From positions 11,842,001 to 11,906,000 of the forward strand of contig NC_090359.1 of NCBI RefSeq assembly GCF_035084215.1: 64,000 bases of DNA, read 5' to 3'. The translations under genes were made by a program, and so were the position numbers. The notes under the pieces were generated by a model that did not search any database, was not told the DNA's origin, and worked only from the letters and a program-made list of their open reading frames with translations. This DNA is from Heptranchias perlo (Eukaryota). The stretch's first letter is position 1. Every line of letters starts with the position of its first letter. This document shows, one piece after another, positions 24,851 to 64,000 of this stretch.

Positions 24851-25528
24851 GACCTAAAGAGCCACACCCACCCCAAGTCTCGGGCCTACTGATGATTTTA
24901 GGCCTTTTTTTTTAAAAGAAGCCCTGAGGAAACCTCTCTCCCCGAATCCCAGAGCTTGGTTGGGAGAGGGGCCCCTTTGCTGGTTTTATTTCCCCCAGAA
25001 TATCCGGGAGAGCAAGAGAAGGTGGGAGGGATTAATGGTGGAATGGGAAGGAGGGAGTCTGCAGGGGTAGGCTGCTGCAGAAGTGGGTGGAAGAGGGGCG
25101 GGGTTGCACCTTAAAAGGTGGATCTTATTCTGCCTGTCTTCCAGTGGGCAGGGGGAGGAGATGTCTTCCCCGAGACAGCTGGAGCTGCCTAGGCTCAGTC
25201 CTCCAAAGATTTGAAAAGGAAAGTAACTTCAACCAGGCAGCTCCAGCTGTCCTGGGCCAGACACTTGGGGGGGACCCCTGTCCTCTGAAGTCCTCTTCCT
25301 CCCCCTACCTTCAGCCGACACACCTCACTGCACCGACCACCTCTTCCTCCCACTGGTTGGTGCTCTTTTTCTCCTTCTCCCTCCCTCCTTGTTGATGGTG
25401 GTTTCTCCTTCTTTCTCCTTCTCCTTCTCCCCAAGGGACCCAGGCAAGGGCCTGCTCTCTCTGCTCTCTCTGCTCTCCACTCCACTCAGTGGCAGTCCAG
25501 CCACAAACACCTCCAAGGCCTTGCTGGT

Positions 25529-25781
25529 CTGTATTGCAAAGCTCTGATTGGCTCTGGATATCAATCTCTCCCCCAGAGCCCTGTCCTTTGTTAATTGGTG
25601 CCTGGATTCATGGAAGATTCCTGATTGGCTATCAGGGATTGTCAATCATCATTGGTGCTGTCCATTCCTGGTTTCAATGCAGGCTGTCCCAGTAGTAGAA
25701 ATACAAGAGCTTGGATCAGAAGAAAATAGTTCCAGAACTTTCTAGGCAATAGAAATTAGTCCCAATATATAAATAGTGAAG
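25529..25781 (+). promoter_or_regulatory. Ferritin 1 promoter and 5' UTR
   Basis: Four ATTGG (reverse CCAAT) boxes shared with the promoters of ferritins 3 and 5; TAGAAATA where paralogs have TATAAATA. Confidence 0.75.
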
Positions 25782-31323
<5,542 letters not shown>

Positions 31324-36254: not shown

Positions 36255-38480
36255 CTGGGATTCTATAACCATTAGTTCTATACTTGGTGAATGCTTTGCT
36301 TGTGGTTATTTTCCAGTTTTCTCACCTGTTGTACATGGCAATAAAAGCTATTCATCAAACTGGTTTGTCTTTGTTGTATAATTAAGTATCTGATCTGATT
36401 ATCCAGATCACAAAGCTACCCACTGCACCACACCCAGCTGAGGAACTTATGATCCAAGTTAGAACTTTCTCCAGGTGTAAAAATATAAAAACCCCTCCTG
36501 GTCCAGCTTCCTGACTTGACTCTGTGCCAATCCAGGATGGTTATGATCACATCTCCAAATTGTTACTGGGATGCCTGAAATACATAATTTCTACAACTAC
36601 AATCTCAGTAAACAATTCCTGCAGAAAAGGGGTTTTCATAACATCTGCAAGCAAGACAACATCAATATGTCGTGCTTTAAAACAACAAAAGGGGAGGTGT
36701 GGCTGGAGAAAGATGAATATGTCAGGACAAGGGAGGGGATCCCTGCAATTTTGCTGTAGTCTGATGCCATAAGTCACTCACTAGGTTGCTCGAGTTGTGG
36801 CCTGTACAAAGTATACTGTTGACAACCCTAGAGTCTTCCTTTGGGCAGACTGTCCTGTTTAACGTTCCCTCATCCAGGGCAATATTTGCCCATTCTTTGT
36901 GTTTGAGTAAACCAGCTGTTTGCAGAAAACACCAAACTGCAGTCTGTCCTGTGTGGTGTTTGTTGTTGGGTAACCTGTGCTGGTAGATGAATCATTTGAT
37001 TTCATTTCTATCACCCAACAACTTGAACTGCCTTCCTTTTGATCATTGCATTACTAACTGTTAAATGGAGCCACAAGTTAATTGTAATCCAATAGTTACT
37101 GTACATTATCTTCCATACTTCATGTATTCTTTCTAACTACCACAACCTGCACAAAAACACTGCACTTAACCCACAAATAGTGTGATTTTTTTTTTCCTGA
37201 AGGTATCAGAAATGAAACCATAAAGTTTGTGAGCCCACTACATAAATATTCTCTTGGACTGAGGTTGCAGACAAAGGGAGCTGTTATACATGGTTACACT
37301 ACCTACAAATTAAACATTGGCTTGACTCGCAGGGGATGGAGGATGTCTGTATGAGCAAGACTGGATAACAGGGTAGGCCTATGGGATTAAGACTACTGCT
37401 TGTGTGAAAGATAAACACCAACATGAACTGGTTGGGCCAAACAGCCTGTTTCGGTGTAAGTTTTATGCAATTCACTCTTCTCTGTTCTTGAGGCTTTGTG
37501 ATCCTTGTATTCAATGCCTGATAGTTGGACCAGAGATACAACAGGAGAGGGACAAGATACTGCAGATATTGGAAAACTCAAACACACAGAAAATGCTGAA
37601 CATACTCACCAGATCAGGCAACATTGGTCTCGAAAACAGGAGACAGTTGACATATCAGATATAAAACCTTTCCTCACAACAGACTCGAGATTTGCAGGAG
37701 ATGAATAAACAGTGCAAACTAAACACTGGACTTTACAGGTTCTAAATTTCATGGGGATAAAACTCCACATCGCACTTTACAGTGATGGAGCAACAGAGTT
37801 CTGTTTGACGATCCCAACTGATCCAATTTCCATTTCCCCAACTCGTTGTCGGTTGGTTTGCGGACTCACTGCGGACTTTCTGGTGAAGGTCAATCTCCTT
37901 CAATCTATTGCGGTGATCAACATTGTGAATCTGGGTATAACGGACTCTTTCAGGACACACCAAGATGCCCATCAATTGTCCAAGAGACAGGATAACTCAG
38001 AACCAAATGTGCTCGACACCATCTACGGGATGGGATTTCCATTTGTAAACTCATCGATCTCTTTGATATATGTTGTGAAGCTCTGATTCTGGGAACAGAG
38101 ATGTTATCAGATTCAGTTTGAGGACTCAATAACTGGGATGACATTGGAGGCCATTGTTGGATCCAAGGAGCCGATCAGTCCTTTGAGGAAAACAACAGCA
38201 ATGACATCACAGAATAATCATCCAATCCTGCCTGTATTCCAAAGCTCTGATTGGCTCTGGGAATCAACTCGCCCCCTCTCTCCTTTGTTAATTGGTGCCT
38301 GGATTCATGGAAGATTCCTGATTGGCTATCAGGGATTGTCAATCATCATTGGTGATGTCATACCCTGTGTAAATGCAGGCTGTCCCAGTAGTATCAATAC
38401 AAGAGCTTGTGAGGGAAGAGGTTAGGTTGTTTCATGCAGTGGTGTTTGAAGTGAGGTTTCTGTTAACAGTAAAAGTTAAG

Positions 38481-40707
<2,227 letters not shown>

Positions 40708-42699
40708 CTGGACTGTTGTCCATGTTGCAGATATTCAACTTGTGTCTTGAAGTTTTATGTTGCCATCTCTCTGAACTGGGAATGGAATTCAAAGTCTAAG
40801 ATTAACTTCCAAACATTGTAGTTGAGTGTTCTTGCAGCTGAAATAAAACATTTTGATGTTGAACTGGTTCCTTTTCTTCAGTAATTGAGCACATTCTAAC
40901 AGCAATGCACGTGGCCTTGCGTCAAACAAAAAAAAATTCTAAGAAATAGGTTGTCACCGTGATAAAATCTGATTTGTTTGGGCACATGGATGTTTTAACC
41001 CCTTCCCCTCCAGAAGGCTTAATTTGGTTTTGTAGCAGCCGAGGATGGCCATCAGGCCAAAATTAGATTTGTACCTAACAGCTTTCAATATTTGGTGTTC
41101 TGTAGTAGAGATTAAAGTGTAATCTGATTACAGTAAGACCTCTTCCTCCACATAGGCTTGAATCCCTTTTGGAGAGTGTGCATTTTTTTATTACTATTCG
41201 TTCATGGGATGTGGGCATCAATGGTGATTACAGTAGTTAACCTTCTGAATAAACAACCCCACACATTGCTGCTGACTTGTCCATTGTAGGACATGAGGGA
41301 AGTGTTCCCTGAAGCAGGTATTCAAATTTAAGTAGTTACAAAAATCCTGGAGCAAAGTAAGACCAAATCTCCAATTGTTCCTGCTAGGGTTACCTGGCTC
41401 TTTCCTCCTTCTCTTCAGCCCATCTTTTTCTTCCTGTGCAGAACTTTGGTCCAGCTCCTGCTATTTGTTTCAATCTCAATTTTTATTTTCCAGTCTCTGT
41501 TCACCTCATGCACCTTTTATATCCTGGACCCCATAGCCTCTAAAATACTTCCATTTGCTGTTGCAAATCTAAGAGCCCCTCTAAGTTTCCCTTGCTGGAT
41601 TCTGTTTCATTAAACAGTTCTTGCCCCATTCCCCTCTCCTTGCGAATACAATCTTTGTGTAATCTTATTTGGCCTGGAACCAAATAACACTAGATCCCAA
41701 TTGCCAAAACTGCCACTTGTAAGTCTACTGAAGAGTTGGAGAATAGAGCCATCTAATTAAAGGCTAAACCACCAACTACTTGGTCTGTTTAAAGCTTTAA
41801 CTGAGTTTGCACCAGTGATGTTCAGGTTATTCTCACACAGGGATCATATGATCAGATCAGTCCATCGACCCCACTTTTCGTTGCTTCATCTTTCCTTCAC
41901 TAGGTTCCACCTTTGATTTTTTAGCCTGCTGTTTGTTGTTGATCCGACAGTATTCTGATGTGATCTGGAACACAAAATATCCACGGGGCCCCATCCTTCC
42001 CTGACCGGATTTAGGGAAATATCAGTAACTCCCCTTTCTAATGAGAAAATTCACCACTCGACTCTTTCCACTTGGTGTTTGACTGTCCAAAAAGTACAAG
42101 AGATTAATCATTGAAACAAGGGATTAACAAACCCAGGAAATACCAGATAGTCTGTTCACCACTGTCGCTCACTGTATATACAACCAACACTACACACAGT
42201 GTTTGCCTCTCACCGCAATCCCTCCCAACACCAAACCCCCCACCCCCCAAATCCCTTCAGTCAATGGTCCACAGTCTCTTCCCCGTGGAGTGCTCTGCAT
42301 TTTATTGTTTGTAAAATGTCATGATGACAAAACAAGAACTCAACATGCCGTGGCCCCCTTCACTTTCCAGCCGATGTGTGTACAGATGCTCACTGACCCT
42401 AGAATTGATGGAGTATTGAAGGACTTGTGTTTAACACGTTCATCACACCCACTTTCCATTCGCCTGACTCGCTGTTGGTTGCTGTTCACAGGCTCTGATC
42501 TGTTTGGATGTTGCCTCAAACCCGCAGCTACTTGCCAAATAACCAACTCACGGATCCATCCAGAATTATTCAAAGACACTGACCCGCAAACAACAATTAA
42601 ACCTGTGGTTCTGGATCTTTGAACCGTCACGATCAGTGACCATAACCGATGGGATGGGGGCAGATCCACCAATTGACAATTTGGTCCATTATGGTCAAG

Positions 42700-42993
42700 T
42701 GCCCGGGTGGCCCCGGAGAGGGAGCATGTGGTGTCCACCGTTACGCTTGATGCCTTCCGCGACCGCTGGGCACCGCAGGGTATAGACTGTCTTTCAGACA
42801 TCAATAATAGAATCCTGATTTAATTGGGAAAGTATCCTGTTGTTTTTGGTGGCACTTGATGCTTATTTTGGTATCTTTTCAGTTTGATTGGACCATCCAA
42901 TATTAGTGGTGCCCTGAGAGGGCCACTTGTGATGGTTTATGTTTGGTGACCCTGGGGCAACCCAGAGTCTCCCTTATTGGTCCATCAAAGAAA
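42700..42993 (+). mobile_element. Divergent Tx1 3' fragment (different subfamily) with 17-bp target-site duplication
   Basis: Encodes ARVAPEREHVVSTVTLDAFRDRWAPQGIDCLSDINNRILI* (stop 42821-42823), homologous to the ORF2 C-terminus. Flanked by ggtc(c/g)attatggtcaag at 42683-42699 and 42994-43010. Confidence 0.85.
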
Positions 42994-43029
42994 GGTCGAT
43001 TATGGTCAAGAATATGGTCACGATCAGAT

Positions 43030-43244
43030 TTGTTTTTCTTTGGAGTGTGGGATGGAAGAGCAGCCATGGTTTTTTTGCTTTTCCTTTTTTTGTGTTTTAG
43101 GCCCCCCTTTTATAAGAAGGGGAGGGGGGTTGGTTGTGTTTATGTGCAGTAAATCAATAAACCCAAAATAAGTGTCAAATTATAATTTTATTACATCGAT
43201 CCAGGATGCACTCCAGTCCCTGCGGTGCCCACCGGTCACGGAAA
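43030..43244 (-). mobile_element. Heavily 5'-truncated Tx1 3' fragment upstream of ferritin 4
   Basis: T-tract(s), the same ccccccttttataagaagggg 3' UTR hairpin and ORF2 end (FRDRWAPQGLECIL); CAGATTT on both sides (43025 and 43245). Confidence 0.88.
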
Positions 43245-43539
43245 CAGATTTTACAGTTTGAGGAAAGTCAAAGCAATTGGATCTTTATTGAATTGTCAGC
43301 CAATGATGCTCCTCCTTCAAAGTTCTGACTGGCTCTGGGTGTCATCTCCCCTCCTCCCTTTTCTTGATTGGTGTTCTGAGAGAGGATGTAATTTCTGATT
43401 GGGTATTGCCAACTGTCACTCATCATCTAGGCTGCCACGCCCAGGATTAACCAGCAGTATAAATATGGAGCTTTGGGTGGCTGTTTTTCAGTTTCTTGCT
43501 TCAATAGAACTGTTTAGTTTTGTTAAAGTTAATTTAAAG

Positions 43540-46092
43540 ATGGCTTCCCAAGTGTGTCAGAACTATCACAAGGAGTGTGAGGATGGTGTCAACAAGCAGA
43601 TCAATATGGAGCTCTATTCCTCCTATGTTTATCTTTCTATGGTGAGTTTTGTTTCTTTGACGCCTTCACATTGGAGATTCTAATGTGACATTACAAAATT
43701 CTGTTTTCTCCAACTCATCTATTGCCTTTTCTCTAATCTGCACCCCCTCCCCCCAATTGATGGATGGTGAGTGTCTTTTTAAAGCTGTAATATAATGTGA
43801 TTTATTGTACAGTCATTATCAAAATGTCTCCCTCTTCCTTGCAGTAGTTGCACCACATTCTATATCTTAAATCTCAATTGTTCACTTTCCTGGTGTCTGA
43901 GCTTTCTATTGAAGTTGTGTTTTGCAGTACACTCTGCATTCAATGCCTGGGATTCATATTTCTTACCCTCTATTCTACATCTCTCCACAGTCTTTCCCCA
44001 CATTCTCCTTGCAATGGTGGGGGTCATAATCTTAAATTAGAGCTAGTCCATTTAGGAGGTAAGTGAGGAAGCACTTTTCCCCTCAAAGGTACTGGAAATC
44101 TAGAACTCTCTCCCTTGAAAGTCTGTGGATGTTGGGGATTAATTGGTGCTTTCAAGACTGAAATCTTTTGTTGGGTCAGGGTATTGAAGGATGAGTTGAT
44201 GTACAGATCCATGTTCCAATTAAATCATTGAGTTGGCTCAAATGGCTGTATGTCCAACTTCTGTTTCCATGCTCTGAACCTTCACTTTTAAGTACCAGCT
44301 TGTCCCTGTCTGTCTTCTCTCTCTGCCTTTGCTCTATTGGTGGTAGGGCCTTCAGCCATTTTGGTCCTACTCAGTGTAACTGTTAATCCCTTTGCCTTCC
44401 TACCTCTGTCTGTCTCTCAAAGCATTCAAATGCTAACAGTTTCTAGTCATGCAACTCTTACTGCTTGGTATCTGTTTCTCCTCTGAAATGCCTTGATGTT
44501 TAGTGTTGAAGGTGCTAAGTTAATGCTGTTTGTGGTAGTTGTAGAAAGGGGTTTGTTTCAAATTTCAGTCATGAAAAGGATGTAAGCTTTTATGTTCCTT
44601 CACTAATTTCTAGACATATAATTCAGTCTTGGGTGTGAAGATTAAAGTGAAATATTGTGTTGAGCATGTTCAAGGCTGAATTGGTAATTTTCCATTGGCC
44701 AGCTTCCCTATTGCCAGGAGTGAGATTATCTCACTGCCAGGTTAGTGAAGCAAGTCAGCCTGTGCTGGTTTTCAGAACCATCTGCCTACAAGCTCAGTGA
44801 GACTTGAACCCTTGACAGAAAGCAAAATATTGAGGTTGGCTTTATGTACAATACCCATGATGATAATTCTGATACCCAACTACTTTTGATCTCACCAGTC
44901 CTATTACTTTGACCGGGATGATGTTGCCCTGCGTCACTTTGCTGAGTTCTTCAAGGAGCAGTCGCATGAGGAATGGGAGCACGCTGAGAAACTGCTGAAA
45001 TTCCAGAATCAGCGTGGGGGCCGAGTCATCTTGGAGGATATCAAGGTTAGATTTAATGGAGTGGCCTTCTGAATGGCTCCCCTTAAATGGACAATTTTAA
45101 ATATTTCTAAAGCAATTTGTTCTAATGCACATAATTACATAGAATGTCCAGCACAGAAACAGGACATTTAGCCCAACTGGTCTATGCTGGTGTTTATGCT
45201 CCACATGAGCTGCCTCCCACCTTCATCTTGCCCTATCATCACATCCATCTATTACTGTCTCCCTCAGTACTTCTCCTTAAAGACATTTATACTATTTGAC
45301 TCGTGGTTGTGGTGGTGTAATTCTATATTCTTGGGACAATTGGTTCATGGCAACATGGACATCTGATTGCTTTTCACCCCTATTTTCCTTCAGTACTTTC
45401 TTGTGTATTTTGTTTAATCCATTAAGTGAACTGGCTGAGACCTGATTCCCTTTTCAGAAGCCAGAGCAGGATGAGTGGAGCAATGGTCTGGAGGCGATGC
45501 AGAGAGCTCTGCAGATGGAGAAGAATGTGAACCAGAGTCTGCTGGATCTGCACAAACTCTCCACTGAGAGGACAGACCCTCATGTAAGTTTTTAATGTGG
45601 GCCTTTGGGTAAGTTCGAGGTGGTGGAAATTTACTGTCCTTGAGCCTATTCAAAAGATCTTCATACCCAATAGCTTTGTTGGTGTCATGCTCAAATTTTA
45701 TTGGGGAGGGGAGACAGGAAAGGGAGATTGCCCTACTGTCTGCATTAGAAGTAAATGTATCTGATCCCAGGATCTAAGCACTTAATAGAGCAAAGTTACT
45801 GTATAAAATGCATCAATCTGAAGTGCACCACTTGACTATCCTCCAGACCAAGAAGATTAAAATCCAAACCCTTGGAGAAGCTCAGATCTTCCTCCATCTC
45901 TTGCTGGACATAACTATTTTCCATCTTTTCTTCCAGTTGTGTGACTTCCTGGAGACCCACTACTTGGATGAACAAGTGAAGATGATCAAGAAGCTTGGAG
46001 ATCACATCACCAACCTGAAGAGACTGGGAGCCCCTGAGAATAGCATGGGAGTGTACCTGTTTGACAAGCACACCCTGGGGGATAGTGATTGA
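43540..46092 (+). CDS. FTH1: Ferritin heavy/middle-chain-like gene 4 (176 aa)
   Basis: Exons 43540-43641, 44899-45045, 45458-45583 and 45937-46092 (ends TLGDSD*); diverged promoter with ATTGG boxes and TATAAA near 43458. Confidence 0.93.
44020..44272 (+). mobile_element. CR1 3' remnant in ferritin 4 intron 1
   Basis: ggtcataatcttaaattagagctagtccatttagg...gaagcacttttccc...; resembles 905-1195. Confidence 0.6.
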
Positions 46093-47022
46093 ACTGACTG
46101 CAGGGATAAAGCTTATTGTTCAGTACTCCTGTTTATAGTCTGAAGAACCCCTATCCTGTAGCAATGGTGACTTTGTACTAAGAGCTGCGAGACCTGGGCT
46201 CTTGATGTGAAATGTAATAGTAACTGGAAATAAACTGTTACAGAAGACTGGGTTTTGGCTCCTTGTAAATTGAGTGATTGCTTATTTTTCAGATTAACAT
46301 AATTCAGCTGTTGTAACAAATTACATTGGGCTATGTATTGGCTTTAGGGTGAGATTCTGGCCTATGACATTTTTTCTTCTGGGGTCATATCAATGTAGTG
46401 ACTTGGGTGTTGAGGGCCAATGTGTCTGCCTTGAGTGTAAATTGTATTTATGCAGTAAAATGATTACTGCTGATTTCAATGCAAAGAACAATACAGTAAT
46501 GAGTTACTGTTCCTATTAGTACTGCATATTATCAACTGTTTAACTCATTAATGATGCAAAATCAGCTGCTGTAACATTTTGTTCCAATAAAACACAAGGA
46601 AAGTAAACTAGTAATTTCAGTCCAATAGGCAATTTTTTAAAGAATAGTATCTGCCTGGGGAAGAACAATCCAGATGCTTTTTTTCAAAGATGCTACAGAC
46701 CTCAGTAGGTCGTTGGGGTAGCTTATGAAATCACTCACTATTACTCCTAATAAACTGTTTGTTTGGAGTCAAATAGGTCTCATATGGGGGAGTGCAGGTT
46801 CCCTGTTTGTCTATTTCCCTTCATTTTCATCTTCTGCCCCCCAACCCCCTGTTAATCTCTCCCATGAATAATAAATTGGGTATGGTACAGAAAAAATACC
46901 TCGAACTAAACTCCAGCAAACAAAATCATCCTTCTGGGAGACGGAGTAAATGCACCAAACAACTAACTTGAACCATTAAGTTGAATAGATAAGGCTCCTA
47001 AACTCTTCCATACCACTACTGT

Positions 47023-47312
47023 TCCATCAATTCATAAACCCAATATAAGCAGCTCATCCATAAATCTATCAATTTGTATTTATCCCATTGTGCAGTTAAT
47101 ACTAGATTACAATTCTAAATTCTACTGGATCACCATTTCATTTAAACCAAGTTAAATAGATATTTTGCCTGAAACTCCACATCCCAATGCCATCAATTCA
47201 TAAACACAATACAATCAGCTCCTCCATAAATGTGTCGATTTGCCTATAGTCCTATTGTGCGTTCCATACCAAATTGTAATCAACCTTTCCAAATCCTATG
47301 GGTTCTCCATTC
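47023..47312. repeat. Diverged two-copy tandem repeat, ~166 bp period
   Basis: ccatcaattcataaac(c/a)caata...cagctc(a/c)tccataaat at ~47024 and ~47190. Confidence 0.7.
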
Positions 47313-47454
47313 ATCTCCTTCACCCCTATGAATGGATTCAAATGTTGATGCTGTATCTGTAATTATCCAGTGTTTCCAAGTGAAGTTTAGGAACTTGTGA
47401 CTTGCACTGGGTGTGATAGAATTGCCGTCTTCAGTCAGTCCATGTTAATATCTT

Positions 47455-47750
47455 TATATTGATGGAGTAAATAAGGGGAAACTGATTCCAGTAGCAGACC
47501 GGTTAGTAACCAGCAAACACAGATTTAAGGTGATTGGTAAAAGAACCAGAAGTGACACGAAACTTTTTTCAGTGTTCTGATCTGGAATGCATTGCCTCAT
47601 CGGGTGGTGGAAGCAGATTTAATAACTTTCAAAAGGAAATTGGATAAATACTTGAAGGGGGAACGAGCAGGGGAGTGGGACTAATTGGATAGCTCTTTCA
47701 AAGAGGCAGCATATGCACAATGGGCTGAATGGCTTCTTTCTGTGCTGTAA
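47455..47750 (+). mobile_element. CR1 3' remnant
   Basis: aaccagcaaacacagatttaaggtgattgg...tctggaatgcattgcct...gggctgaatggcttctttctgtgctgtaa. Confidence 0.65.
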
Positions 47751-47869
47751 TAGGATATTATGATCTCTAAAGGCACTTTTGGGATATCAATGTCACCACA
47801 TTTCATACGTTGTTGAGCCATAATTTTACGAGTCAGTGTGGATTATCTGGTAGCTTTGACTGCTGCATA

Positions 47870-48250
47870 GTTCGCACCTTTGAGGTGTAGTCACTGTTGT
47901 AAGGTAAGAAATGCGGCAGTCAATTTGCCTCCAGCAAGGACCCAAAAACAGCAATGAAATATTGACCTGATAATCTGTTTTAGTGATGTTAGTTGAGGGA
48001 TAAATATTGGTCCAGATATTGGGGAGAACTCCGCTGCTCTTCCTCGAAATAGTGCTGTGGGATATTTTACGTCCACCTGAGAGAGCAGATGAGGCCTCGA
48101 TTTAATATCACATCCAAAAGACGGCACCTCCGACAGTACAGCACTCCCTTAGTCAGCCGAGATTATGTGCTCAAGTCTCTAGATGATAATTGAACCCACA
48201 ACCTTCTGACTCTGAGGTGAGAGTGCTGCCACTGAGCCACAGCTGACACA
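47870..48250 (-). mobile_element. tRNA-headed SINE
   Basis: Minus strand shows Pol III A box (tggctcagtgg) and B box (gggttcaat) at 48190-48240, followed by a body shared with 35328-35716. Confidence 0.75.
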
Positions 48251-48710
48251 AATGGAGATGTTTGTGTGGGTGACATTGCATTCAGTAATCTTCACTGCCT
48301 CTCATTCTCGCTGAATATCCTGAATTTTACCAAACAACATTTCATGAGAATCAAAACTAAAAATGATGCATCCCACAATGCTTTGCCCAGTTGATGCCCC
48401 CATGCTGCCAATCCTCAGACACACCCATTCTCTATATTAGAACTGGGGACGATTCACACCATCCATGGGATGGAATTTCCATTTCTCTGACCAATGGATG
48501 GTTTGCAAATTCACTCAAGACAACTTGATTGCTTTGAATATTGTCTCAACATCACAATCACCAACAAGTAATAAACTTGACCAGATTATGAAAAGCCACT
48601 TCAGTGAAAATATCAAATTATTATCAAATAATTCAAAATTATGATTCCAAGAGATTGAAACAAAGAGAAACTTTCAGATTTTTTTTTTTCATATTTTTTT
48701 CACTTTCAGA

Positions 48711-51700
48711 TTTTTTTTTTTCCTTTTTTATTTTTTTTTATTTTGTTAGGCCCCCCTTTTATAAGAAGGGGGGTGTGGGGTGTGCTTAAATACTAAAACC
48801 AAACAAACCAAAACCAAGTGTTCAAATTAAAATTTTATTCTCCTCGTCCAGGATGCACTCCAGCCCCTGCGGTGCCCACCGGCCGCGGAAAGCCTCGAGC
48901 GTACCGGCAGACACCGCGTGCTCCATCTCCAGGGCCACCCGGGCGCGGAGCATTCCGCGGAAGAGAGGCAGACAGGCCGAGCGACCGCCCCCACGGACCA
49001 CGATCATCCTAGACCTGTGGATGGCCACCTTGGACAGGCCCAGGAGCAGGCCCACGAGAACGTCCACCGACCTGCCCGCCCCCCTCCTCACCGGTCGGCC
49101 AAAGATCAGGAGCGTGGGACTGAAGTGCAGCCAGAACTTGAGGAGCTGACCTTCGGCAGGTCCTCCCACAAAACTCTGCGCGCCTCCTCGCTGGACGGAT
49201 CCGGAGAGAACAGAGCCTCGTAGTAAGATCGAGCCCGGGCCCTGACTCCCTCCGGGTCCGAGACGAGGGACCCGTCGTCGGCCAGCAGCGTAAGGAGCTG
49301 ATTACGAGCCCCCCGCCGCTTTTCCAGCGAGTAGAAGAAGGGAGAGCCGCGGTCCAGGTCCCGAAGGAGCTGGAGCCGCGACCTCACGTACGCTCCTCGG
49401 GACCCGACCAGTTGCAGGTCCCTCAGAGCGTCCATCCTCTCTTCGTACACCTGCCGCAGGGCCGGATCCTCGGCGGCCTGACCGAGACAGGACTCCAGGC
49501 CAAGCACCTCCTGCTCCAACCGCCTGACCTCGGACTCCCGCCTCTTAGTCGACCCCCTCGCGTACTCTTGACAGAAGAGGCGGACGTGAGCCTTGCCCAC
49601 GTCTCACCATAGCCTCAAGGAGGAGAAGCCTCCCCGCTTCCCTCTCCAGTCGCTCCAGAACAGACGGAACGAGTCCCGGAACCGCGCGTCCTCCAGCAGC
49701 CGGTTGTTAAAGTGCCAGTACGCGGACCCCGACCGGGCGCGGAGCAGAGCGAGCTCCATCCACACCAGGTGGTGGTCCGAGCACGACACCGGCCGGATGG
49801 AGGCCGACGGGACGCAGGAGGCGTACGCCCGCGAAACGTACAGGCGGTCGATTCTGATGCTCCCTCCTGCAGCCCTCACAAAGGTGAACTGGCCGGAGTC
49901 GGGATGGAGATTCCGCCAGACGTCCACCAAGTCGAAGGACCCGACCAGGTCCCTCAACTTCTCCGTCGCCGTTCGGGCACGCGCGGGACCGGAGCGGTCC
50001 CTCGCCTCGAGGGTACGGTTAAAATCCCCCCCGAGGATAATGCACTCGCCGGCGTCGACGGAGTTTAGGTAAGTAGACACTTCTTCAAAGAAGCTCACTT
50101 GCTCGCCCTCGGACCAGGGGGCGTACACGTTCACCAGGTGAAGCGGCACGTCCCCGTGGCGAAGGGCTACGTGGAGCAAGCGGCCCGGCACCGGCTCCTT
50201 GACCCCCAAGATCTCCGGCTGAAAAGTCGGGGCCAACAAGATGGCCACCCCGCTCGAAACGCTGGCGAGGTGACTCAAGTAGACCCCCCCTCCCCATTCC
50301 AGGATCCACGTGGCCTCGTCTCCCGGAACGGTGTGGGTTTCCTGCAGAAAGCACACCGCATACTTCCCGTCCCGCAGGACCGAGAACTTGTCAAATCTAC
50401 GGCGGGCGTCTCTGCCGCCGTTGATGTTGAGGCTGGCTATGGTTATCTCCATGGCAAGAGCACAGCGCAACCTACTTAAACCTAACGCGCGGAGGGAGCG
50501 GGGCCGCTAGTCGACCGCCACTCCCTCAAGAGCCCGGTGAGGAGGGATCTGAGCCGACGCAGCCCGACCCCGCCGTCGTCCCCTTCCGCGGCCACGGACG
50601 CGACGGCGGCCAGGACCGAGCGGATTAACTGCGCCGGCTCCGACCAACGGTCGAGGGCCAGCCGGACGCCATCGCGACGACGGCTCCAACCGGACGCAAA
50701 ATCCCGGAGTTCCTCAACGGGGATGAGGGGAGACTCGGTGCAGGGCACGAGGGCGTCCACCACCTCACTGGCGGCGAACTCCAAATCCTCCCCAGTGCCC
50801 ACCACCGAGTCCCCATCCTCCTCCGGGTCATCGTCGCCCGCGGCCGACCCGCTCCCCGCACAAAGCGCGGAGAACGAGACGGCCGCGCCGGCCAGCCCCG
50901 CCTCTGTCACGATCCCACCCCCAGGATCGTCGGCAGAGGAGTCCTCCCCGGGCTCCACCGGGGGGTCCGGATCAGAGGGCGGCGCCGGGCGGGGACCCTC
51001 CCCAGCCTCCGAGCGGTGAAAAACCGGCACCCGGATATAAGGGGAACCCGGGGAAACCGGGGAGAACGTGTACTCAAGTTCTCCCACCTCCCCCGGCTCC
51101 GAGCCCAGATACTGGGAGGAGGGGGTCTCCCCACCCACGTCGCCACCGACCGACCCGGCCGGTGAGATATTTTGATTAAAACCCACCACCAGGTCGAGCA
51201 GGTCCTGGGAGAGGTCGAGCCGGGGGCAGACGAATTTGGCCGCAACGGCCTCGCCCACCCCGACACCCAGGACGCCCGACCCGGTGAACAGGGTAGTGTC
51301 GGGTAACTGCGGAGCCGCGACCCCCCCTATCGGCGGGGTCTCTCCACCCCCCCGGGAGGCACGGGCACAATCTCCTCCCCCCGAGAGGTGGATGACCCCC
51401 GCCGCTGTTCGGATGTCACGGGCGGGGCTGCAGGATCCGCGACCGGCACCGACTCCCCTTCCACGGGGGGCCGTCCCTTAGCAGGGAGCCCGTTCGCTTC
51501 CGGGGAGTGGTGCCTCTTTTTCTTCCAGGAGGGTCGCGGAGGGAGGGGGGACTCCATGTCTACTGGGACCCCCGCCTCCGCTCCCTCCTGATCACCCGCC
51601 AGCCCGGGCTCTGTCGCGACCGCGAGATGTTGACTGGCCGCGGTCACGGCCTCGGGCTGACTGAGATCTTCTCTGTCCCGGGGACCAGCCTCTAAATTCT

Positions 51701-53253
51701 TCCTCTTTCTCCGCGCTTTCTTCTGGCGAGGGTTCCCCTCCTCCCCCCTGGCGGAGGCCTCGACGCCAACCTCCACCCGCGCAGTTGACTCTCCCGACGC
51801 GGGGGCGGGGTTGGGGGGAGGAGCGGTGGCGGCGCCAGCCCCGGCCGCCGTAGCTGTTTTGGCGGCCTGAGAGGCAGGGCAGTTCCTCTTCAGGTGCCCC
51901 ACCTCCTTACAGGCATGGCACCGCCCACCCTCTGCCGTCCAAAAGACGCGGTAAGGGGTCCCCTCGTGGAGGGCGTTAAAGCCCCCCTCCGTAACCTCCT
52001 CCCGTGCCAGCTTGACGAATGCCTGGCGACGGAAGGAGTAAACATGCCGGAGGCTGTTCTCCCTGAGTCCGAGCGGCAGCGGCGTTACCCCCGACCTCAC
52101 CTCCCCCAGTTGACGTAGGTGGGGGAGGAGGAGCTCGTCCGACAGGAAAGGCGGGACGTTAGATAAAATGACTCGCTGCGCGGTGGCCTCCAGCGGGTCC
52201 ACCGGCAGGAAGGTCCCGCCAACCGTGAGCCCCTTACTAAGGGCCAGGGACACCGCCCGCTCGGACCTCAGGAAGAACACCGCCCTCCCGTACATTTTTG
52301 AGGCCGCGACGATGGCCGAGGGGCCGACAACCTCGGCCATGGCCTTTACGCAGGCCTCAATGGTCATGTTGGGGTGGGCGTAGCTCTTCACCCCATGCTT
52401 CCTCGTAATGAGGCGGAAAGGCGCCGGCCCAGCAGGAGCGGCACGAACTGTAGGAGCGGCCCCCGAGGTAACCGCCGCATACGTCCTGCTGGGTCCCGGC
52501 ACCGGCGAAGATGGTGAAGCCATGACTGAGAGAGCCACACCCACCCCAAGTCTCGGGCCTACTGATGAATTTAGGCCTTTTTTTTTAAAAGAAGCCCTGA
52601 GGAAACCTCTCTCCCCGAATCCCAGAGCTTGGTTGGGAGAGGGGCCCCTTTGCTGGTTTTATTTCCCCCAGAATATCCGGGAGAGCAAGAGAAGGTGGGA
52701 GGGATTAATGGTGGAATGGGAAGGAGGGAGTCTGCAGGGGTAGGCTGCTGCAGAAGTGGGTGGAAGAGGGGCGGGGTTGCACCTTAAAAGGTGGATCTTA
52801 TTCTGCCTGTCTTCCAGTGGGCAGGGGGAGGAGATGTCTTCCCCTAGACAGCTGGAGCTGCCTAGGCTCAGTCCTCCAAAGATTGAAAAAGTAACTTCAC
52901 CCAGGCAGCTCCAGCTGTCCTGGGCCAGACACTTGGGGGAACCCCCTGTCCTCTAAGGTCTTCTTCCTCCCCCTACCTTCAGCCGACGCACCTCACTGCA
53001 CCGACCTCCTCTTCCTCCCTCTGTTCGGTGTCGCAAACCACCAGCAGCAGCAGCACAACCCCTCCCGGCTGCTGTTTGGTAGTATTCTTCTTCTCCCTCC
53101 CTCCTTGTTGATGGTGGTTTCTCCTTCTCCTTCTCCTTGACTCAGAGGGACCCGGGCAAGGGCCTGCTCTCTCTGCTCTCTCTGCTCTCCACTCAATGGC
53201 AGTTCAGCCACAAACAGCTCCAATGCCGAGCTGGTGTGTCTCAAAGACAACCC
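48711..53253 (-). mobile_element. Tx1 copy D, internally deleted non-autonomous derivative
   Basis: Both ends intact. ~2.3 kb of ORF2 including the RT domain is deleted at ~49147; TGA at 49604; ORF1 (50482-52523) frameshifted near 51345. Confidence 0.93.
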
Positions 53254-53283
53254 AACAGAGATGTTATCAGATTCAGTTTGAGG

Positions 53284-53416
53284 NNNNNNNNNNNNNNNNN
53301 NNNNNNNNNNNNNNNNNNNNNNNNNNNNNNNNNNNNNNNNNNNNNNNNNNNNNNNNNNNNNNNNNNNNNNNNNNNNNNNNNNNNNNNNNNNNNNNNNNNN
53401 NNNNNNNNNNNNNNNN
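53284..53416. other. Assembly gap (N run)
   Basis: Run of Ns between the 5' flank of copy D and the 3' end of copy E. Confidence 1.
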
Positions 53417-56400
53417 AAAATTTTATTTTCCTCGTCCAGGATGCACTCCAGCCCCTGCGGTGCCCACCGGCCGCGGAAAGCCTCGAGCGTACCGGCAGAC
53501 ACCGCGTGCTCCATCTCCAGGGCCACCCGGGCGCGGAGCATTCCGCGGAAGAGAGGCAGACAGGCCGAGCGACCGCCCCCACGGACCACGATCATCCTAG
53601 ACCTGTGGATGGCCACCTTGGACAGGCCCAGGAGCAGGCCCACGAGAACGTCCACCGACCTGCCCGCCCCCCTCCTCACCGGGCGGCCAAAGATCAGGAG
53701 CGTGGGACTGAAATGCAGCCAGAACTTGAGGAGCAGCCCCTTCAAATAATGGAACAGGGGCTGCAGTCTCGCACACCCAGTGTACAGATGGAACACGGAC
53801 TCCTCCAGGCCGCAGAAATCACAAGCGGCCTGGGTGTCCGTGAAATGGCGTAACCGCCGGTTGCACGCGACTGCTCCGTGCGCCACCCTCCACCCCAGAT
53901 CCCCAAAGTAACACGGGAGGACCCCTGTATAGAGAGCCTCCCAATGGGGACCCCCGTCTCCGCCGGACGGCAGGATGGTACGCCAGGGCGTGTCCGGCCG
54001 AGAGACGAGGGCGAGGAAGTGGATGGTGTGCAGGAGCAGCCCGTACAGGAAATCCCTCCGCGCGGTGTGAAACGGCACGGAGGGAATTTCCGAGAGACGA
54101 CTCAAGTTGTGAGGCGCGGCCCCCCGAGGGAGGTTCCGGGGTTTGGCGCCGAGGAGGAACTCCGTCCGAACGGGGGTCAGGTCGGACGGGATGGCTCCGC
54201 ACGCCTGAGCCGCCTCCACATCCCGAGTGGAGTCAGGGCCGAGCGCCGATTTCAACGCCCGGATGGCGATGGCCGCGTCCCCGGCACGCCACGAGGACAT
54301 CCGTGCGGCGAGCGCCCACGGCTCCAACCAACCCGACCCACCGCCATCCAGGACGTCCCTGACTCTGGTCACCCGACCGGCCACGGCCCTCCGCACCGAC
54401 AGCCGCGAGTGGCCGAAGCCGATATCGCGGAGGAACGGATTCCCGAGCAGCGGCTCCTGCAGGACGGCCGCTACCCCTGACGGGCGAGAGCTCCGACCGG
54501 AGGCGACCATGTTCCAGACCCTGAGCAGATCCTGGTAAAAGACAGGCAGCTCCTGCAAAGACGTGCGGCCGCCCACCAGCGAGATGAACAGGAGCTGCGT
54601 GTCGTAGTTCAGGCCGTGCAGCTGGCGGAAAAAATACGTCGCCAGTGCACGCCATCTAAGAGGACGCTCAACGTACAGGTATCGCCGCAGCGTCCGAAGG
54701 CGGAAAGTTGCCACCTGGGTGCGGACGCACACCAGCCCCTGACCGCCCTCCCTAAGCGGGAGACTCAGGACCGCGGCAGCGACCCAGTGTATCCCTCTGG
54801 CCCAGAAGAAGTCGACAAACTTCTTCTGAATTTTGGCGACAAACTCAGGGGGGGGGATCAAAGTGACCAACCGGTACCACAACATGGCGGCCACCAGCTG
54901 GTTTATGACCAGCACACGACCCCTGTAGGATAACACTCGGAGCAGTCCTGTCCAGCGCGCCAGGCGAGCGGTGACTTTGGCCTCCAGCTCTTCCCAGTTC
55001 GCCGGCCAGGCTTCCTCGGCAGGGCCGAGGTAGACTCCCAGGTACCGGAGGTGCGTGGTACTCCAGGCGAAAGGCCTGAGCTCCTCCGGCAGGGAGTCCA
55101 CCCGCCACTGACCCACCAGGAGTCCGGAACATTTCTCCCAGTTGATCCTTGCGGAAGACGCCGCAGAGTAGACCTCTTGGCACTCGCGCATCCTCCGCAA
55201 GTCAAGGGGATCCGTGACCACGAGGAGCACGTCGTCGGCGTAAGCCGAAAGGACGACCTCCACGTCCGGCTCGCGCAGAGCCAGTCCCGACAACCTCTTG
55301 CGCAAGAGGCGCAGGAAAGGCTCCACGCAGACGGCGTATAATTGGCCGGACATGGGGCACCCCTGACGCACTCCTCTCCCGAAGCGAAGGGGCGCCGTCA
55401 AGGATCCGTTAACCTTAATCAGACACTCCGCGGCGGCGTACAGAAGTCGGATCCGGGCGACGAAATGCGACCCGAACCCGAAAGCGCGCAGAGTCCCGAA
55501 TAGATACTCGTGATCCACCCTGTCGAACGCCTTCTCCTGATCTAAGGAAAGGAAGGCGACCGACAGACCAGCCCTCTGGGAATGGTGGATCAGGTCCCGG
55601 ACCAGATGGATGTTATCGTGGATCTTCCGGCCCGGGACCGTGTAGGACTGGTCGGGGTGGATCATGTGGGCCAGCACGGTGCCCAGGCGAGCAGACATCG
55701 CCTTGGCAAAGACCTTATAATCCGTGCTGAGGAGGGAGACCGGGCGCCAGTTTTTAAGGTTGCGGAGATCCCCCTTCTTAGGCAGCAGGACCACGACCGC
55801 CCTGCGCCACGAAAGGGGCATCTCCCCGGTCGCCAGACATTCCCCCAGGACCCGCGCGTAGTCGCCCCCCAGGACGTCCCAGAAGGCCCTGAGGAACTCC
55901 ACGGTCAGCCCGTCCAGCCCCGGGGACTTGCCCCTGGAGAGCTGGTGGAGGGCGCCGGTCAGCTCCGCCAAACTGAGCGGAGCGTCCAGACGCTCGGCGT
56001 CCTCCGGGCCGACCTTCGGCAAGTCCTCCCACAAAACTCTGCGCGCCTCCTCGCTGGACGGATCCGGAGAGAACAGAGCCTCGTAGAAAGATCGAGCACG
56101 GGCCCTGACTCCCTCCGGGTCCGAGACGAGGGACCCGTCGTCGGCCAGCAGCGTAAGGAGCTGCTTACGAGCCCCCCGCCGCTTTTCCAGCGAGTAGAAG
56201 AAGGGAGAGCCGCGGTCCAGGTCCCGCAGGAGCTGGAGCCGCGACCTCACGTACGCTCCTCGGGACCCGACAAGGTGCAGGTCCCTCAGAGCGTCCTTCC
56301 TCTCCTCGTACACCTGCCGCAGGGCCGGATCCTCGGCGGCCTGACCGAGACGGGACTCCAGGCCAAGCACCTCCTGCTCCAACCGCCTGACCTCGGACTC

Positions 56401-57315
56401 CCGCCTCTTAGTCGACCCCCTCGCGTACTCTTGACAGAAGAGGCGGACGTGAGCCTTGCCCACGTCCCACCATAGCCTCAAGGAGGAGAAGCCTCCCCGC
56501 TTCCCTCTCCAGTCGCTCCAGAACAGACGGAACGAGTCCCGGAACCGCGCGTCCTCCAGCAGCCGGTTGTTAAAGTGCCAGTACGCGGACCCCGACCGGG
56601 CGCGGAGCAGAGCGAGCTCCATCCACACCAGGTGGTGGTCCGAGCACGACACCGGCCGGATGGAGGCCGACGGGACGCAGGAGGCGTACGCCCGCGAAAC
56701 GTACAGGCGGTCGATTCTGGTGCTCCCTCCTGCAGCCCTCACAAAGGTGAACTGGCCGGAGTCGGGATGGAGATTCCGCCAGACGTCCACCAAGTCGAAG
56801 GACCCGACCAGGTCCCTCAACTTCTCCGTCGCCGTTCGGGCACGCGCGGGACCGGAGCGGTCCCTCGCCTCGAGGGTACGGTTAAAATCCCCCCCGAGGA
56901 TAATGCACTCGCCGGCGTCGACGGAGTTTAGGTAAGTAGACACTTCCTCAAAGAAGCTCACTTGCTCGCCCTCGGACCAGGGGGCGTACACGTTCACCAG
57001 GTGAAGCGGCACGTCCCCGTGGCGAAGGGCTACGTGGAGCAAGCGGCCCGGCACCGGCTCCTTGACCCCCAAGATCTCCGGCTGAAAAGTCGGGGCCAAC
57101 AAGATGGCCACCCCGCTCGAAACGCTGGCGAGGTGACTCAAGTAGACCCCCCCTCCCCATTCCAGGATCCACGTGGCCTCGTCTCCCGGAACGGTGTGGG
57201 TTTCCTGCAGAAAGCACACCGCATACTTCCCGTCCCGCAGGACCGAGAACTTGTCAAATCTACGGCGGGCGTCTCTGCCGCCGTTGATGTTGAGGCTGGC
57301 TATGGTTATCTCCAT
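53417..57315 (-). CDS. Tx1 copy E ORF2, intact up to the last residues before the gap
   Basis: MEITIASLNING...YADD...CDFC...DEENKI; the final codons fall in the N run. Confidence 0.93.
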
Positions 57316-57344
57316 GGCAAGAGCACAGCGCAACCTACTTAAAC

Positions 57345-59387
57345 CTAACGCGCGGAGGGAGCGGGGCCGCTAGTCGACCGCCACTCCCTCAAGAGCCCGG
57401 TGAGGAGGGATCTGAGCCGACGCAGCCCGACCCCGCCGTCGTCCCCTTCCGCGGCCACGGACGCGACGGCGGCCAGGACCGAGCGGATTAACTGCGCCGG
57501 CTCCGACCAACGGTCGAGGGCCAGCCGGACGCCATCGCGACGACGGCTCCAACCGGACGCAAAATCCCGGAGTTCCTCAACGGGGATGAGGGGAGACTCG
57601 GTGCCGGGCACGAGGGCGTCCACCACCTCACTGGCGGCGAACTCCAAATCCTCCCCAGTGCCCACCACCGAGTCCCCGTCCTCCTCCGGATCATCGTCGC
57701 CCGCGGCCGACCCGCTCCCCGCACAAAGCGCGGAGAACGAGACGGCCGCGCCGGCCAGCCCCGCCTCTGTCACGATCCCACCCCCAGGATCGTCGGCAGA
57801 GGAGTCCCCCCCGGGCTCCACCGGGGGGTCCGGGTCAGAGGGCGGCGCCGGGCGGGGACCCTCCCCAGCCTCCGAGCGGTGAAAAACCGGCACCCGGATA
57901 TAAGGGGAACCCGGGGAAACCGGGGAGAACGTGTACTCAAGTTCTCCCACCTCCCCCGGCTCCGAGCCCAGAGACTGAGAGGAGGGGGTCTCCCCACCCA
58001 CGTCGCCACCGACCGACCCGGCCGGTGAGATATTCTGGTTAAAACCCACCACCAGGTCGAGCAGGTCCTGGGAGAGGTCGAGCCGGGGGCAGACGAATTT
58101 GGCCGCAACGGCCTCGCCCACCCCGATACCCAGGACGCCCGACCCGGTGAACAGGGTAGTGTCGGGTAACTGCGGAGCCGCGACCCCCCCTATCGGCGGG
58201 GTCTCTCCATCCCCTCCGGGAGGCACGGGCACGATCTCCTCCCCCCGAGAGGTGGATGACCCCCGCCGCTGTTCGGATGTCACGGGCGGGGCCGCAGGAT
58301 CCGCGACCGGCACCGACTCCCCTTCCACGGGGGGCCGTCCCTTAGCAGGGAGCCCGTTCGCTTCCGGGGAGTGGTGCCTCTTTTTCTTCCAGGAGGGTCG
58401 CGGAGGGAGGGGGGACTCCATGTCTGCTGGGACCCCCGCCTCCGCTCCCTCCTGATCACCCGCCAGCCCGGGCTCTGTCGCGACCGCGAGATGTTGACTG
58501 GCCGCGGTCACGGCCTCGGGCTGACTGAGATCTTCTCTGTGCCGGGGACCAGCCTCTAGATTCTTCCTCTTTCTCCGCGCCTTTCTCTGGCGAGGGTTCC
58601 CCTCCTCCCCCCTGGCGGAGGCCTCGACGCCAACCTCCACCCGCGCAGTTGACTCTCCCGACGCGGGGGCGGGGTTGGGGGGAGGAGCGGTGGCGGCGCC
58701 AGCCCCGGCCGCCGTAGCTGTTTTGGCGGCCTGAGAGGCAGGGCAGTTCCTCTTCAGGTGCCCCACCTCCTTACAGGCATGGCACCGCCCACCCTCTGCC
58801 GTCCAAAAGACGCGGTAAGGGGTCCCCTCGTGGAGGGCGTTAAAGCCCCCCTCCGTAACCTCCTCCCGTGCCAGCTTGACGAATGCCTGGCGACGGAAGG
58901 AGTAAACATGCCGGAGGCTGTTCTCCCTGAGTCCGAGCGGCAGCGGCGTTACCCCCGACCTCACCTCCCCCAGTTGACGTAGGTGGGGGAGGAGGAGCTC
59001 GTCCGACAGGAAAGGCGGGACGTTAGATAAAATGACTCGCTGCGCGGTGGCCTCCAGCGGGTCCACCGGCAGGAAGGTCCCGCCAACCGTGAGCCCCTTA
59101 CTAAGGGCCAGGGACACCGCCCGCTCGGACCTCAGGAAGAACACCGCCCTCCCGTACATTTTTGAGGCCGCGACGATGGCCGAGGGGCCGACAACCTCGG
59201 CCATGGCCTTTACGCAGGCCTCAATGGTCATGTTGGGGTGGGCGTAGCTCTTCACCCCATGCTTCCTCGTAATGAGGCGGAAAGGCGCCGGCCCAGCAGG
59301 AGCGGCACGAACTGTAGGAGCGGCCCCCGAGGTAACCGCCGCATACGTCCTGCTGGGTCCCGGCACCGGCGAAGATGGTGAAGCCAT
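57345..59387 (-). CDS. Tx1 copy E ORF1, intact, 680 aa
   Basis: ATG at 59387 (MASPSS...), CCHC knuckle, stop at 57345. Confidence 0.93.
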   Translation of the reverse strand: MASPSSPVPGPSRTYAAVTSGAAPTVRAAPAGPAPFRLITRKHGVKSYAHPNMTIEACVKAMAEVVGPSAIVAASKMYGRAVFFLRSERAVSLALSKGLTVGGTFLPVDPLEATAQRVILSNVPPFLSDELLLPHLRQLGEVRSGVTPLPLGLRENSLRHVYSFRRQAFVKLAREEVTEGGFNALHEGTPYRVFWTAEGGRCHACKEVGHLKRNCPASQAAKTATAAGAGAATAPPPNPAPASGESTARVEVGVEASARGEEGNPRQRKARRKRKNLEAGPRHREDLSQPEAVTAASQHLAVATEPGLAGDQEGAEAGVPADMESPLPPRPSWKKKRHHSPEANGLPAKGRPPVEGESVPVADPAAPPVTSEQRRGSSTSRGEEIVPVPPGGDGETPPIGGVAAPQLPDTTLFTGSGVLGIGVGEAVAAKFVCPRLDLSQDLLDLVVGFNQNISPAGSVGGDVGGETPSSQSLGSEPGEVGELEYTFSPVSPGSPYIRVPVFHRSEAGEGPRPAPPSDPDPPVEPGGDSSADDPGGGIVTEAGLAGAAVSFSALCAGSGSAAGDDDPEEDGDSVVGTGEDLEFAASEVVDALVPGTESPLIPVEELRDFASGWSRRRDGVRLALDRWSEPAQLIRSVLAAVASVAAEGDDGGVGLRRLRSLLTGLLREWRSTSGPAPSAR

Positions 59388-60117
59388 GACTGAGAGAGCC
59401 ACACCCACCCCAAGTCTCGGGCCTACTGATGAATTTAGGCCTTTTTTTTTAAAAGAAGCCCTGAGGAAACCTCTCTCCCCGAATCCCAGAGCTTGGTTGG
59501 GAGAGGGGCCCCTTTGCTGGTTTTATTTCCCCCAGAATATCCGGGAGAGCAAGAGAAGGTGGGAGGGATTAATGGTGGAATGGGAAGGAGGGAGTCTGCA
59601 GGGGTAGGCTGCTGCAGAAGTGGGTGGAAGAGGGGCGGGGTTGCACCTTAAAAGGTGGATCTTATTCTGCCTGTCTTCCAGTGGGCAGGGGGAGGAGATG
59701 TCTTCCCCTAGACAGCTGGAGCTGCCTAGGCTCAGTCCTCCAAAGATTGAAAAAGTAACTTCACCCAGGCAGCTCCAGCTGTCCTGGGCCAGACACTTGG
59801 GGGAACCCCCTGTCCTCTAAGGTCTTCTTCCTCCCCCTACCTTCAGCCGACGCACCTCACTGCACCGACCTCCTCTTCCTCCCTCTGTTCGGTGTCGCAA
59901 ACCACCAGCAGCAGCAGCACAACCCCTCCCGGCTGCTGTTTGGTAGTATTCTTCTTCTCCCTCCCTCCTTGTTGATGGTGGTTTCTCCTTCTCCTTCTCC
60001 TTGACTCAGAGGGACCCGGGCAAGGGCCTGCTCTCTCTGCTCTCTCTGCTCTCCACTCAATGGCAGTTCAGCCACAAACAGCTCCAATGCCGAGCTGGTG
60101 TGTCTCAAAGACAACCC

Positions 60118-64000
<3,883 letters not shown>

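Follow-up and report, generated by a model that had tools for sequence, protein, structure and literature searches.

Insertions of a Tx1-clade LINE concentrate in the promoters of amplified ferritin genes in Heptranchias perlo

The 64,000-nucleotide stretch analysed here (the window; C38:11842001-11906000, where C38 is contig NC_090359.1 of Heptranchias perlo) contains five ferritin genes on the + strand, with ATGs at 25782, 33521, 38481, 43540, and 60505, and five copies (A–E) of a 6.75-kb retrotransposon, a long interspersed nuclear element (LINE) of the Tx1 clade, all on the − strand and 96–98% identical to one another. The ferritin exons were confirmed by Pfam; two short ferritin pieces gave no match in the Pfam search. 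Comparison of these copies with those found elsewhere in the 3.25-Gb genome, to which all genome-wide marker counts below refer, shows with high confidence that insertion is regionally targeted to the promoters of these genes. The preliminary description of the window had attributed the association to a shared insertion motif, (T)CAGA/TT, about 290–370 nt upstream of the ferritin ATGs.

The left part of the window begins with a ZP3-like egg-coat gene (1934–4464, − strand), present from intron 1 onward, 88% identical to a ZP3-like locus and carrying a Pfam ZP-C domain at 2979–3248; one ZP3 exon gave no match in the Pfam search. The array of copies A–C has taken the place of its promoter and exon 1, so that these elements read into the remaining exons. 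Copy A (4465–11516, − strand; ORF2, the second open reading frame, frameshifted) has a composite tail consisting of a tag from the 5′ untranslated region (5′UTR) of a sister element and a short 3′ fragment; its tail junction is found again at C38:13.85 Mb. Between A and B lies a duplicated ferritin promoter piece, from a type-1 head to gttccagaac (11517–11726, + strand), followed by copy B (11727–18507, − strand; tail at the −44 site, ORF2 interrupted), a second promoter piece duplicated between B and C (18508–18717, + strand; 218/218 identical to the piece to the right of C), and copy C (18718–25528, − strand), whose ORF2 of 1301 aa contains the APE endonuclease and reverse transcriptase (RT) domains by Pfam. 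The array ends at the promoter and 5′UTR of ferritin 1, up to ATG 25782 (25529–25784, + strand), which has four ATTGG boxes and an empty gttccagaac/ttt site at 25729–25741. The gttccagaac sequence described earlier for the left array is present at 11717, 18708, and 25729, but it lies at −44 in the 5′UTR, outside the −290 to −370 interval; B and C have 218-bp duplications, and the tail of A starts after 4464, within intron 1 of the ZP3-like gene, at a site unrelated to CAGA/TT.

In the right part, the 20-mer aacagagatgttatcagatt is empty upstream of ferritin 2 (33195–33214, + strand) and ferritin 3 (38094–38113, + strand), where the CAGA/TT nick positions lie at −309 and −370 from the ATGs, and it recurs at 53254 and 60118, immediately after the 5′ ends of copies D and E, all as described previously. 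Upstream of ferritin 4 an older (~80%) 3′ fragment (43029–43244, − strand), with a transduced tag at 43042–43065, directly follows atcaga at 43023–43028, again as described; fragments of this type are also found upstream of many ferritin paralogues on C38. Older Tx1 3′ fragments (72–88%) in the ferritin-sense orientation occur at 42690–42830 of the window and in the C43 cluster, 400–900 bp upstream of numerous ferritin genes, a hint that element and ferritin have long been associated.

Copy D (48679–53253, − strand) has an internal deletion of ~2.3 kb and a double tail, with actttcaga present, as reported, both at 48670, where it ends the 3′ flank (48658–48678, + strand), and within the tail (48702–48710). 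This flank is a ferritin-upstream paralogue, as had been claimed: its empty version is found on C43 (L088), with an ATG 316 nt after the CAGA. The empty allele rules out an unrelated transposon as the target of D. The target duplication envisaged for D is absent, the left flank and the right head stemming from different ferritin paralogues. Of 30 paralogous loci fetched, 28 were printed, and 26 of these share the double-tail junction of D; the 1.5-kb flank of D is matched at 96–99% by 13 other loci; judged from these alignments, the D junction is one insertion multiplied by segmental duplication, which rules out a separate insertion at each D-type locus. Behind D lies a ferritin-3-type head (53254–53283, + strand; read directly from the sequence), and copy E follows, with a visible body at 53417–60117 (− strand) and both ORFs open where visible, leading to the ferritin 5 promoter (60118–60507, + strand; 99.5% identical to that of ferritin 3), which starts with the 20-mer head and reaches ATG 60505. 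The tail of E does not lie at CAGA/TT: at least 12 further target bases (53272–53283) continue past it without a T-tract, so that the nick of E lies further to the right.

The element is best classified as a Tx1-clade non-LTR retrotransposon (one without long terminal repeats), nearer to Tx1L than to L1 by identity rather than by an RT tree. Its ORF2 is 50% identical to that of Xenopus Tx1L (YTX2_XENLA) over 1299 columns, the full length, and matches Pfam Exo_endo_phos and RVT_1, i.e., an N-terminal APE endonuclease and an RT; L1 endonuclease structures also match. The best named match to ORF2 by identity is a shark protein (66% over part of the length). ORF1 contains a CX2CX4HX4C motif (CCHC knuckle) read from the sequence, and a Pfam search with ORF1 and two upstream ORFs gave no match. 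A poly(A) tail, 5′ truncations, and target duplications were all seen. Some copies are chimeras in which a young ORF2 is joined to a diverged ORF1/5′UTR (78–84%; L340+L328 at C38 ~10.0 Mb, and L316–L320), each 5′ type being paired with its own promoter head.

The tie of the element to ferritin upstream DNA, proposed in the preliminary description, is real and stronger than the window alone reveals. A 26-mer of the 5′UTR has 58 matches in the genome, 56 of them in ferritin clusters (C38, 38; C43, 9; C725, 7; C1048, 2), and a ferritin exon-1 marker has at least 107 matches, most of them in the same clusters. The ferritin family itself occupies C38 9.6–17.7 Mb, C43 4.27–4.77 Mb, and C725; a 470-kb part of C43 has 63 start codons, and on C38 the ferritin genes are interleaved with a ZP3-like family (168 5′UTR/ATG-marker matches, some of which are transduced tags). 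Among 57 element 5′ ends examined, 55 run straight into ferritin promoter sequence of one of three head types and two are cut by the next tail; the copies form head-to-tail arrays of up to five, directed away from the ferritin ATG and nearly all antisense. When target preference is taken as more than 20% of flanks being of one sequence type, a threshold given in the accessible part of PMC4494074, the values are 55 of 58 for 5′ ends and at least 57 of 394 markers for 3′ ends, the latter counted in the cluster DNA fetched.

Young 3′ junctions numbered 82 in 940 kb of cluster DNA, two of which contain N and were left unscored; 54 of the remaining 80 lie in ferritin upstream DNA (−480 to −43) in antisense orientation, a count that includes duplicated copies and comes from a script that misplaced at least two nicks (C38:9325074 and 16148776). 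Orientation among the scored junctions at ferritin is 54 antisense vs. 2, plus one sense event seen twice. Counted by hand, the nicks occupy at least 13 distinct positions spanning −380 to −43, rather than the narrow fixed distance to the gene that characterizes TRE5-A; a tally of 48 site-and-tail signatures overcounts the events and was left out of these figures. The 54 promoter junctions include 15 at GG..TGGA, 11 at CAGA, and 11 at the −44 site, and 30 of them, duplicated copies included, end in GA; none of the 54 has its nick inside the TGA|TTGG box. The C43 cluster was fetched nearly whole, and its 18 junctions were collapsed by hand to 12 events: 10 of these fall in the 7.6% of non-element DNA that promoter windows occupy (p = 4e-10), and 5 of the 7 events that do not lie beside a resident full-length copy are likewise at promoters (p = 5e-5). 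The expectation for the C43 promoter windows from the rate on C1–C9 is 0.002. Insertion is position-specific in that it occurs upstream of a class of genes, with an orientation bias and with no target motif in common.

Outside the clusters, the element forms a dispersed population, an exact 28-mer of the 3′UTR having 394 matches genome-wide. On C1–C9, 84 of 89 marker matches were fetched and 54 received a duplication call; after removal of 8 of these as duplicates, miscalls, repeats, or T-runs, 46 were used. The nick context at these 46 sites is N|T in 42 and N|TT in 28, and in none is it CAGA|T or RGA|TT; target duplications measure 9–19 bp, with a mode of 14, apart from a single one of 178 bp. 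Where actttcaga|T does appear in dispersed tails (L018, L055, L058, and L256), it is a 3′-transduced piece between T-tracts, within an unrelated duplication. Because dispersed nicks show no such motif and CAGA tails are transduced tags, a family-wide CAGA/TT motif is unsupported; as a motif of the nuclease across the family it was rejected on the 46 nicks. A side observation from the dispersed set is a truncated copy at a CpG-rich, promoter-like single locus (L020/L338, C29:41.6 Mb), where a CCAATCA box lies ~80 bp from the tail.

These junctions bear directly on the model put forward earlier, in which the APE domain recognizes (T)CAGA/TT as the Tx1L endonuclease recognizes its target. The CAGA and GA endings of the cluster junctions agree with it, as does a genuine 20-bp duplication of the 20-mer (in a GTGATC variant) around a full-length copy in an otherwise empty promoter (C38:13868864-13875640), and the closest characterized relative is site-specific, according to the available portion of PMC1919474. 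The logo of dispersed 3′ junctions, a check set beforehand, shows preference for T only and largely refutes the model; insertion also occurs at 12 or more other positions in the promoters, and the endonuclease hairpin loop, implicated in sequence recognition by TRAS1 and R1Bm (PMC1919474, in part), is three residues shorter than in Tx1L. Nuclease recognition of CAGA/TT is accordingly very improbable, and insertion is spread over the ferritin promoter rather than confined to one nick site in one target of the Tx1L/Keno type. CAGA|TT is nonetheless a real local hotspot inside ferritin promoters. Target-primed reverse transcription that starts at a nick before T and leaves a short duplication, the other part of the earlier proposal, holds for 5′-truncated copies, with 42 of 46 nicks before T and duplications mostly of 12–16 bp; full-length copies duplicate 80–240 bp.

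Array copies are flanked by seamless duplications of 79–242 bp, several of them 100% identical, and both dispersed full-length copies seen have long duplications as well (~200 bp on C30 and 136 bp on C9). Among nine longer dispersed copies that were refetched, a long duplication is present in one (C9), a tandem pair has 49 bp, short duplications flank three, and four are unclear. A long duplication restores a promoter piece with CCAAT on both sides of the element, so that arrays grow head-to-tail. The 5′ heads also move: a 9-nt stretch of ferritin head is retained in the dispersed C30 copy, and at C43:4580894 the donor head gives way to target sequence within the promoter, repeating a variant that is otherwise confined to the left flank. 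Target sequence thus travels with the 5′ end of the element in the manner of an R2 leader, though single cases may reflect conversion; neither RNA leaders for all long duplications nor target duplications for all of them fits the copies. In type-1 heads on C38, C725, and C1048, the ferritin TATA box next to the element bears many different mutations, which could favour antisense initiation.

Tails carry host sequence as well. Host-promoter sequence was found in 15 of 83 dispersed tails (ferritin, 6; ZP4, 4; ZP3, 5) vs. 5 of 68 control windows, and the 15 tagged tails point to promoter-linked copies as sources. The tails at C725:363813 and 370909 and that of L058 contain four or five serial promoter tags between T-tracts; as read from the tails, such series may record either successive hops or repeated nicking.

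The tags led to two further gene families. One, ZP4-like, combines trefoil and ZP-N domains (identity by Pfam), and on C49 it bears an antisense element array together with stacked poly(T)-only insertions, of which about six are seen at one ZP4 promoter (L332–L333, C49 ~27.815 Mb), most with a ~14-bp duplication at one nick. In the other, the ZP3-like family (by Pfam), sister copies are inserted in the sense direction with the nick at the TATA box. The trefoil+ZP-N (ZP4/ZPB-like) family is itself expanded on C23 (L301–L315), C1594, and C49, with 33 of 59 promoter-marker matches on C23, and none of the 15 C23 ZP4-like loci read has a young element within 1.5 kb. Older sister copies also lie, divergently oriented, ~260 bp upstream of a RING-finger (TRIM-like) gene (L326 and L327, on C1020 and C1146). 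Elements pass between families: on C38 a ferritin nick site is occupied by a ZP4-headed copy, and tails at ferritin sites on C43 carry ZP4 tags. Pairwise alignments of the ferritin, ZP4, and ZP3 promoters scored 16–20, against a 95th percentile of 22–23 for shuffled sequences, and no extended homology among the three was seen.

Such cross-family copies argue against a history in which a few chance founders were followed by self-attraction through homology, unequal crossover, and segmental duplication, with no promoter targeting at all. Elements of this history are visible in the D junction, one event in at least 26 copies, in identical tandem tails on C43, in seamless joins to resident 5′ ends, with two tandem fragments truncated at the same base, and in nicks that fall inside resident elements. 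As the full explanation it is unlikely: the C43 events outside existing arrays are still mostly at promoters, the ZP4-headed and ZP4-tagged copies entered ferritin promoters that have no homology to their heads, and several naive CAGA|TT insertions occurred in different paralogues.

What the three promoters do have in common is CCAAT/ATTGG boxes. Around the dispersed nicks, CCAATCA occurs 15 times within 150 bp vs. 18 times far from them, a 4.2-fold enrichment (p = 9e-5) that ranks first among 140 7-mers of the same composition; at 16 dispersed sites fetched later it occurs 3 times near vs. 2 far (p = 0.034). In RNA runs, spliced ZP4 contigs were present in run X3 only, which also has six of the seven contigs with the ferritin exon 1–2 joint, and which we infer to be from ovary. 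No element–promoter junction was recorded in the RNA records; one contig of run X1 bridges it but shows neither strand nor RNA origin. We weighed two ways in which promoters active in the oocyte might attract the element. Under passive access, the most open and most transcribed promoters of the oocyte would be struck by a T-cutting endonuclease with no tether, an account that agrees with the high expression of ferritin and ZP transcripts in zebrafish ovarian follicles (PMC1488847, in the part available), with the weak nick preference, and with an effect common to three unrelated promoters. It is doubtful, because the orientation bias at ferritin and the repeated use of single positions (ZP4 on C49) exceed what openness alone predicts, dispersed sites show no CpG-island enrichment (a general preference for CpG promoters was rejected on this ground), and CCAATCA stands first among the 7-mers.

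Insertion through a promoter-bound factor in the oocyte, with NF-Y at the CCAAT boxes as the best candidate, is the explanation toward which the evidence leans, by a little more than an even chance. As the junctions show, nicking needs little beyond a T, and insertions gather, more than 1000-fold enriched, at many positions in promoter windows within a few hundred bases of the gene starts. Three unrelated gene families are affected; at ferritin and ZP4 the insertions are nearly all antisense, and at the ZP3 TATA box they are sense. A promoter-bound factor, for which NF-Y is the leading candidate, would recruit the element. Full-length copies carry a piece of host promoter as a travelling 5′ head, a structure read in the copies and presumably borne by RNA. 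The target duplication measures 80–240 bp for full-length and ~14 bp for short copies, and the long form rebuilds the promoter on both sides. Promoter-linked copies would then be transcribed as sources and leave their 3′ tags in dispersed, 5′-truncated daughters. The wider picture, of a vertebrate LINE that is guided by a CCAAT-box factor to the RNA polymerase II (Pol II) promoters of the amplified gene families of the oocyte, captures the promoter as a swappable 5′ leader, rebuilds its target by 80–240-bp duplications, and rides the maternal expression programme while reshuffling ferritin and ZP arrays, is put forward tentatively, as a proposal with rather less than even chances.

Several observations weigh against recruitment by a promoter-bound factor. 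CCAATCA is nearby at just 11 of the 46 dispersed sites, the idea arose from viewing part of this same set, and the later set depends on 2 of its 16 sites; in 25 copies with no called duplication the counts are 2 vs. 3 (p = 0.17). CpG and GC are not raised near the 46 dispersed nicks. Orientation differs between ferritin and ZP4 (antisense) and ZP3 (sense), and ferritin itself has its sense minority. Because C38 was sampled around full-length 5′ ends, junction counts there are biased and C43 is the sole fair control, and the control for tail tags, with its 5 positives, is not clean. Three identical C43 tails and D-type copies with different 5′ ends are signs of unequal crossover or conversion, and with such exchange at work RNA need not have carried every chimeric head. 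All RNA contigs come from a single sample of guessed library type and carry neither strand nor level.

The promoter-directed system of this Tx1-clade member is real and apparently undescribed. The accessible literature yielded no report that Tx1 or any LINE targets the promoters of ferritin or ZP genes; Repbase, most subscription journals, and supplements lay outside its coverage, and the Repbase Tx1 entries, Kojima and Fujiwara (2004), or Christensen (2000) could hold one. If the explanation is correct, the element follows a new vertebrate safe-haven strategy, in which redundant, oocyte-active Pol II promoters give germline expression and tolerance together, and it offers a natural system for LINE targeting without a specific nuclease, for the gain of new 5′ promoters, and for the control of duplication length. 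Serial 3′ tags allow single lineages to be traced from locus to locus, and the expansion of ferritin to 107 genes or more, with ZP3-like genes interspersed, is unusual in its own right.

The targets known for target-preferring LINEs are rDNA, small RNA genes, microsatellites, telomeres, and other transposons. In Schizosaccharomyces pombe, a DNA-bound factor directs Tf1 to Pol II promoters, where it integrates in a region-specific manner; unlike the element described here, Tf1 is an LTR element with an integrase, uses single-copy promoters, and forms no tandem arrays. R2 and R9 are rDNA-specific and have another type of endonuclease. The target-derived 5′ leader seen in the head switch on C43 and in the ferritin head on C30 resembles R2, for which annealing of target-derived leaders has been postulated (PMC3774820, in part), and the long target duplication of R9 is the counterpart of the long duplications here; unlike in R2 and R9, the size of the duplication changes with that of the insertion, and heads are exchanged between gene families. 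With Tx1L and the target-preferring Tx1-clade LINEs Keno, Kibi, Koshi, and Tx1-Mar the element has in common an APE endonuclease and RT, a poly(A) tail, and multicopy targets. The accessible part of PMC4494074 names transposons, small RNA genes, microsatellites, and satellites as targets of the clade and reports tandem insertions around a duplication for the partner SINEU-3. The present element departs from the Tx1L/Keno group in targeting protein-coding families at their promoters, in nicking at numerous positions that share no motif, and in having dispersed copies in large numbers. In Dictyostelium, TRE5-A, an APE-type non-LTR element, inserts upstream of tRNA genes in the opposite orientation, its ORF1 product contacts TFIIIB, and its promoter benefits from the neighbouring gene (PMC5911963, in the portion available). 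The present element differs from TRE5-A in its use of Pol II promoters over a ~340-bp window, rather than Pol III genes over 44–54 bp, and its factor contact is a candidate; in its working, antisense and upstream of multicopy genes, it is TRE5-A that it most resembles.

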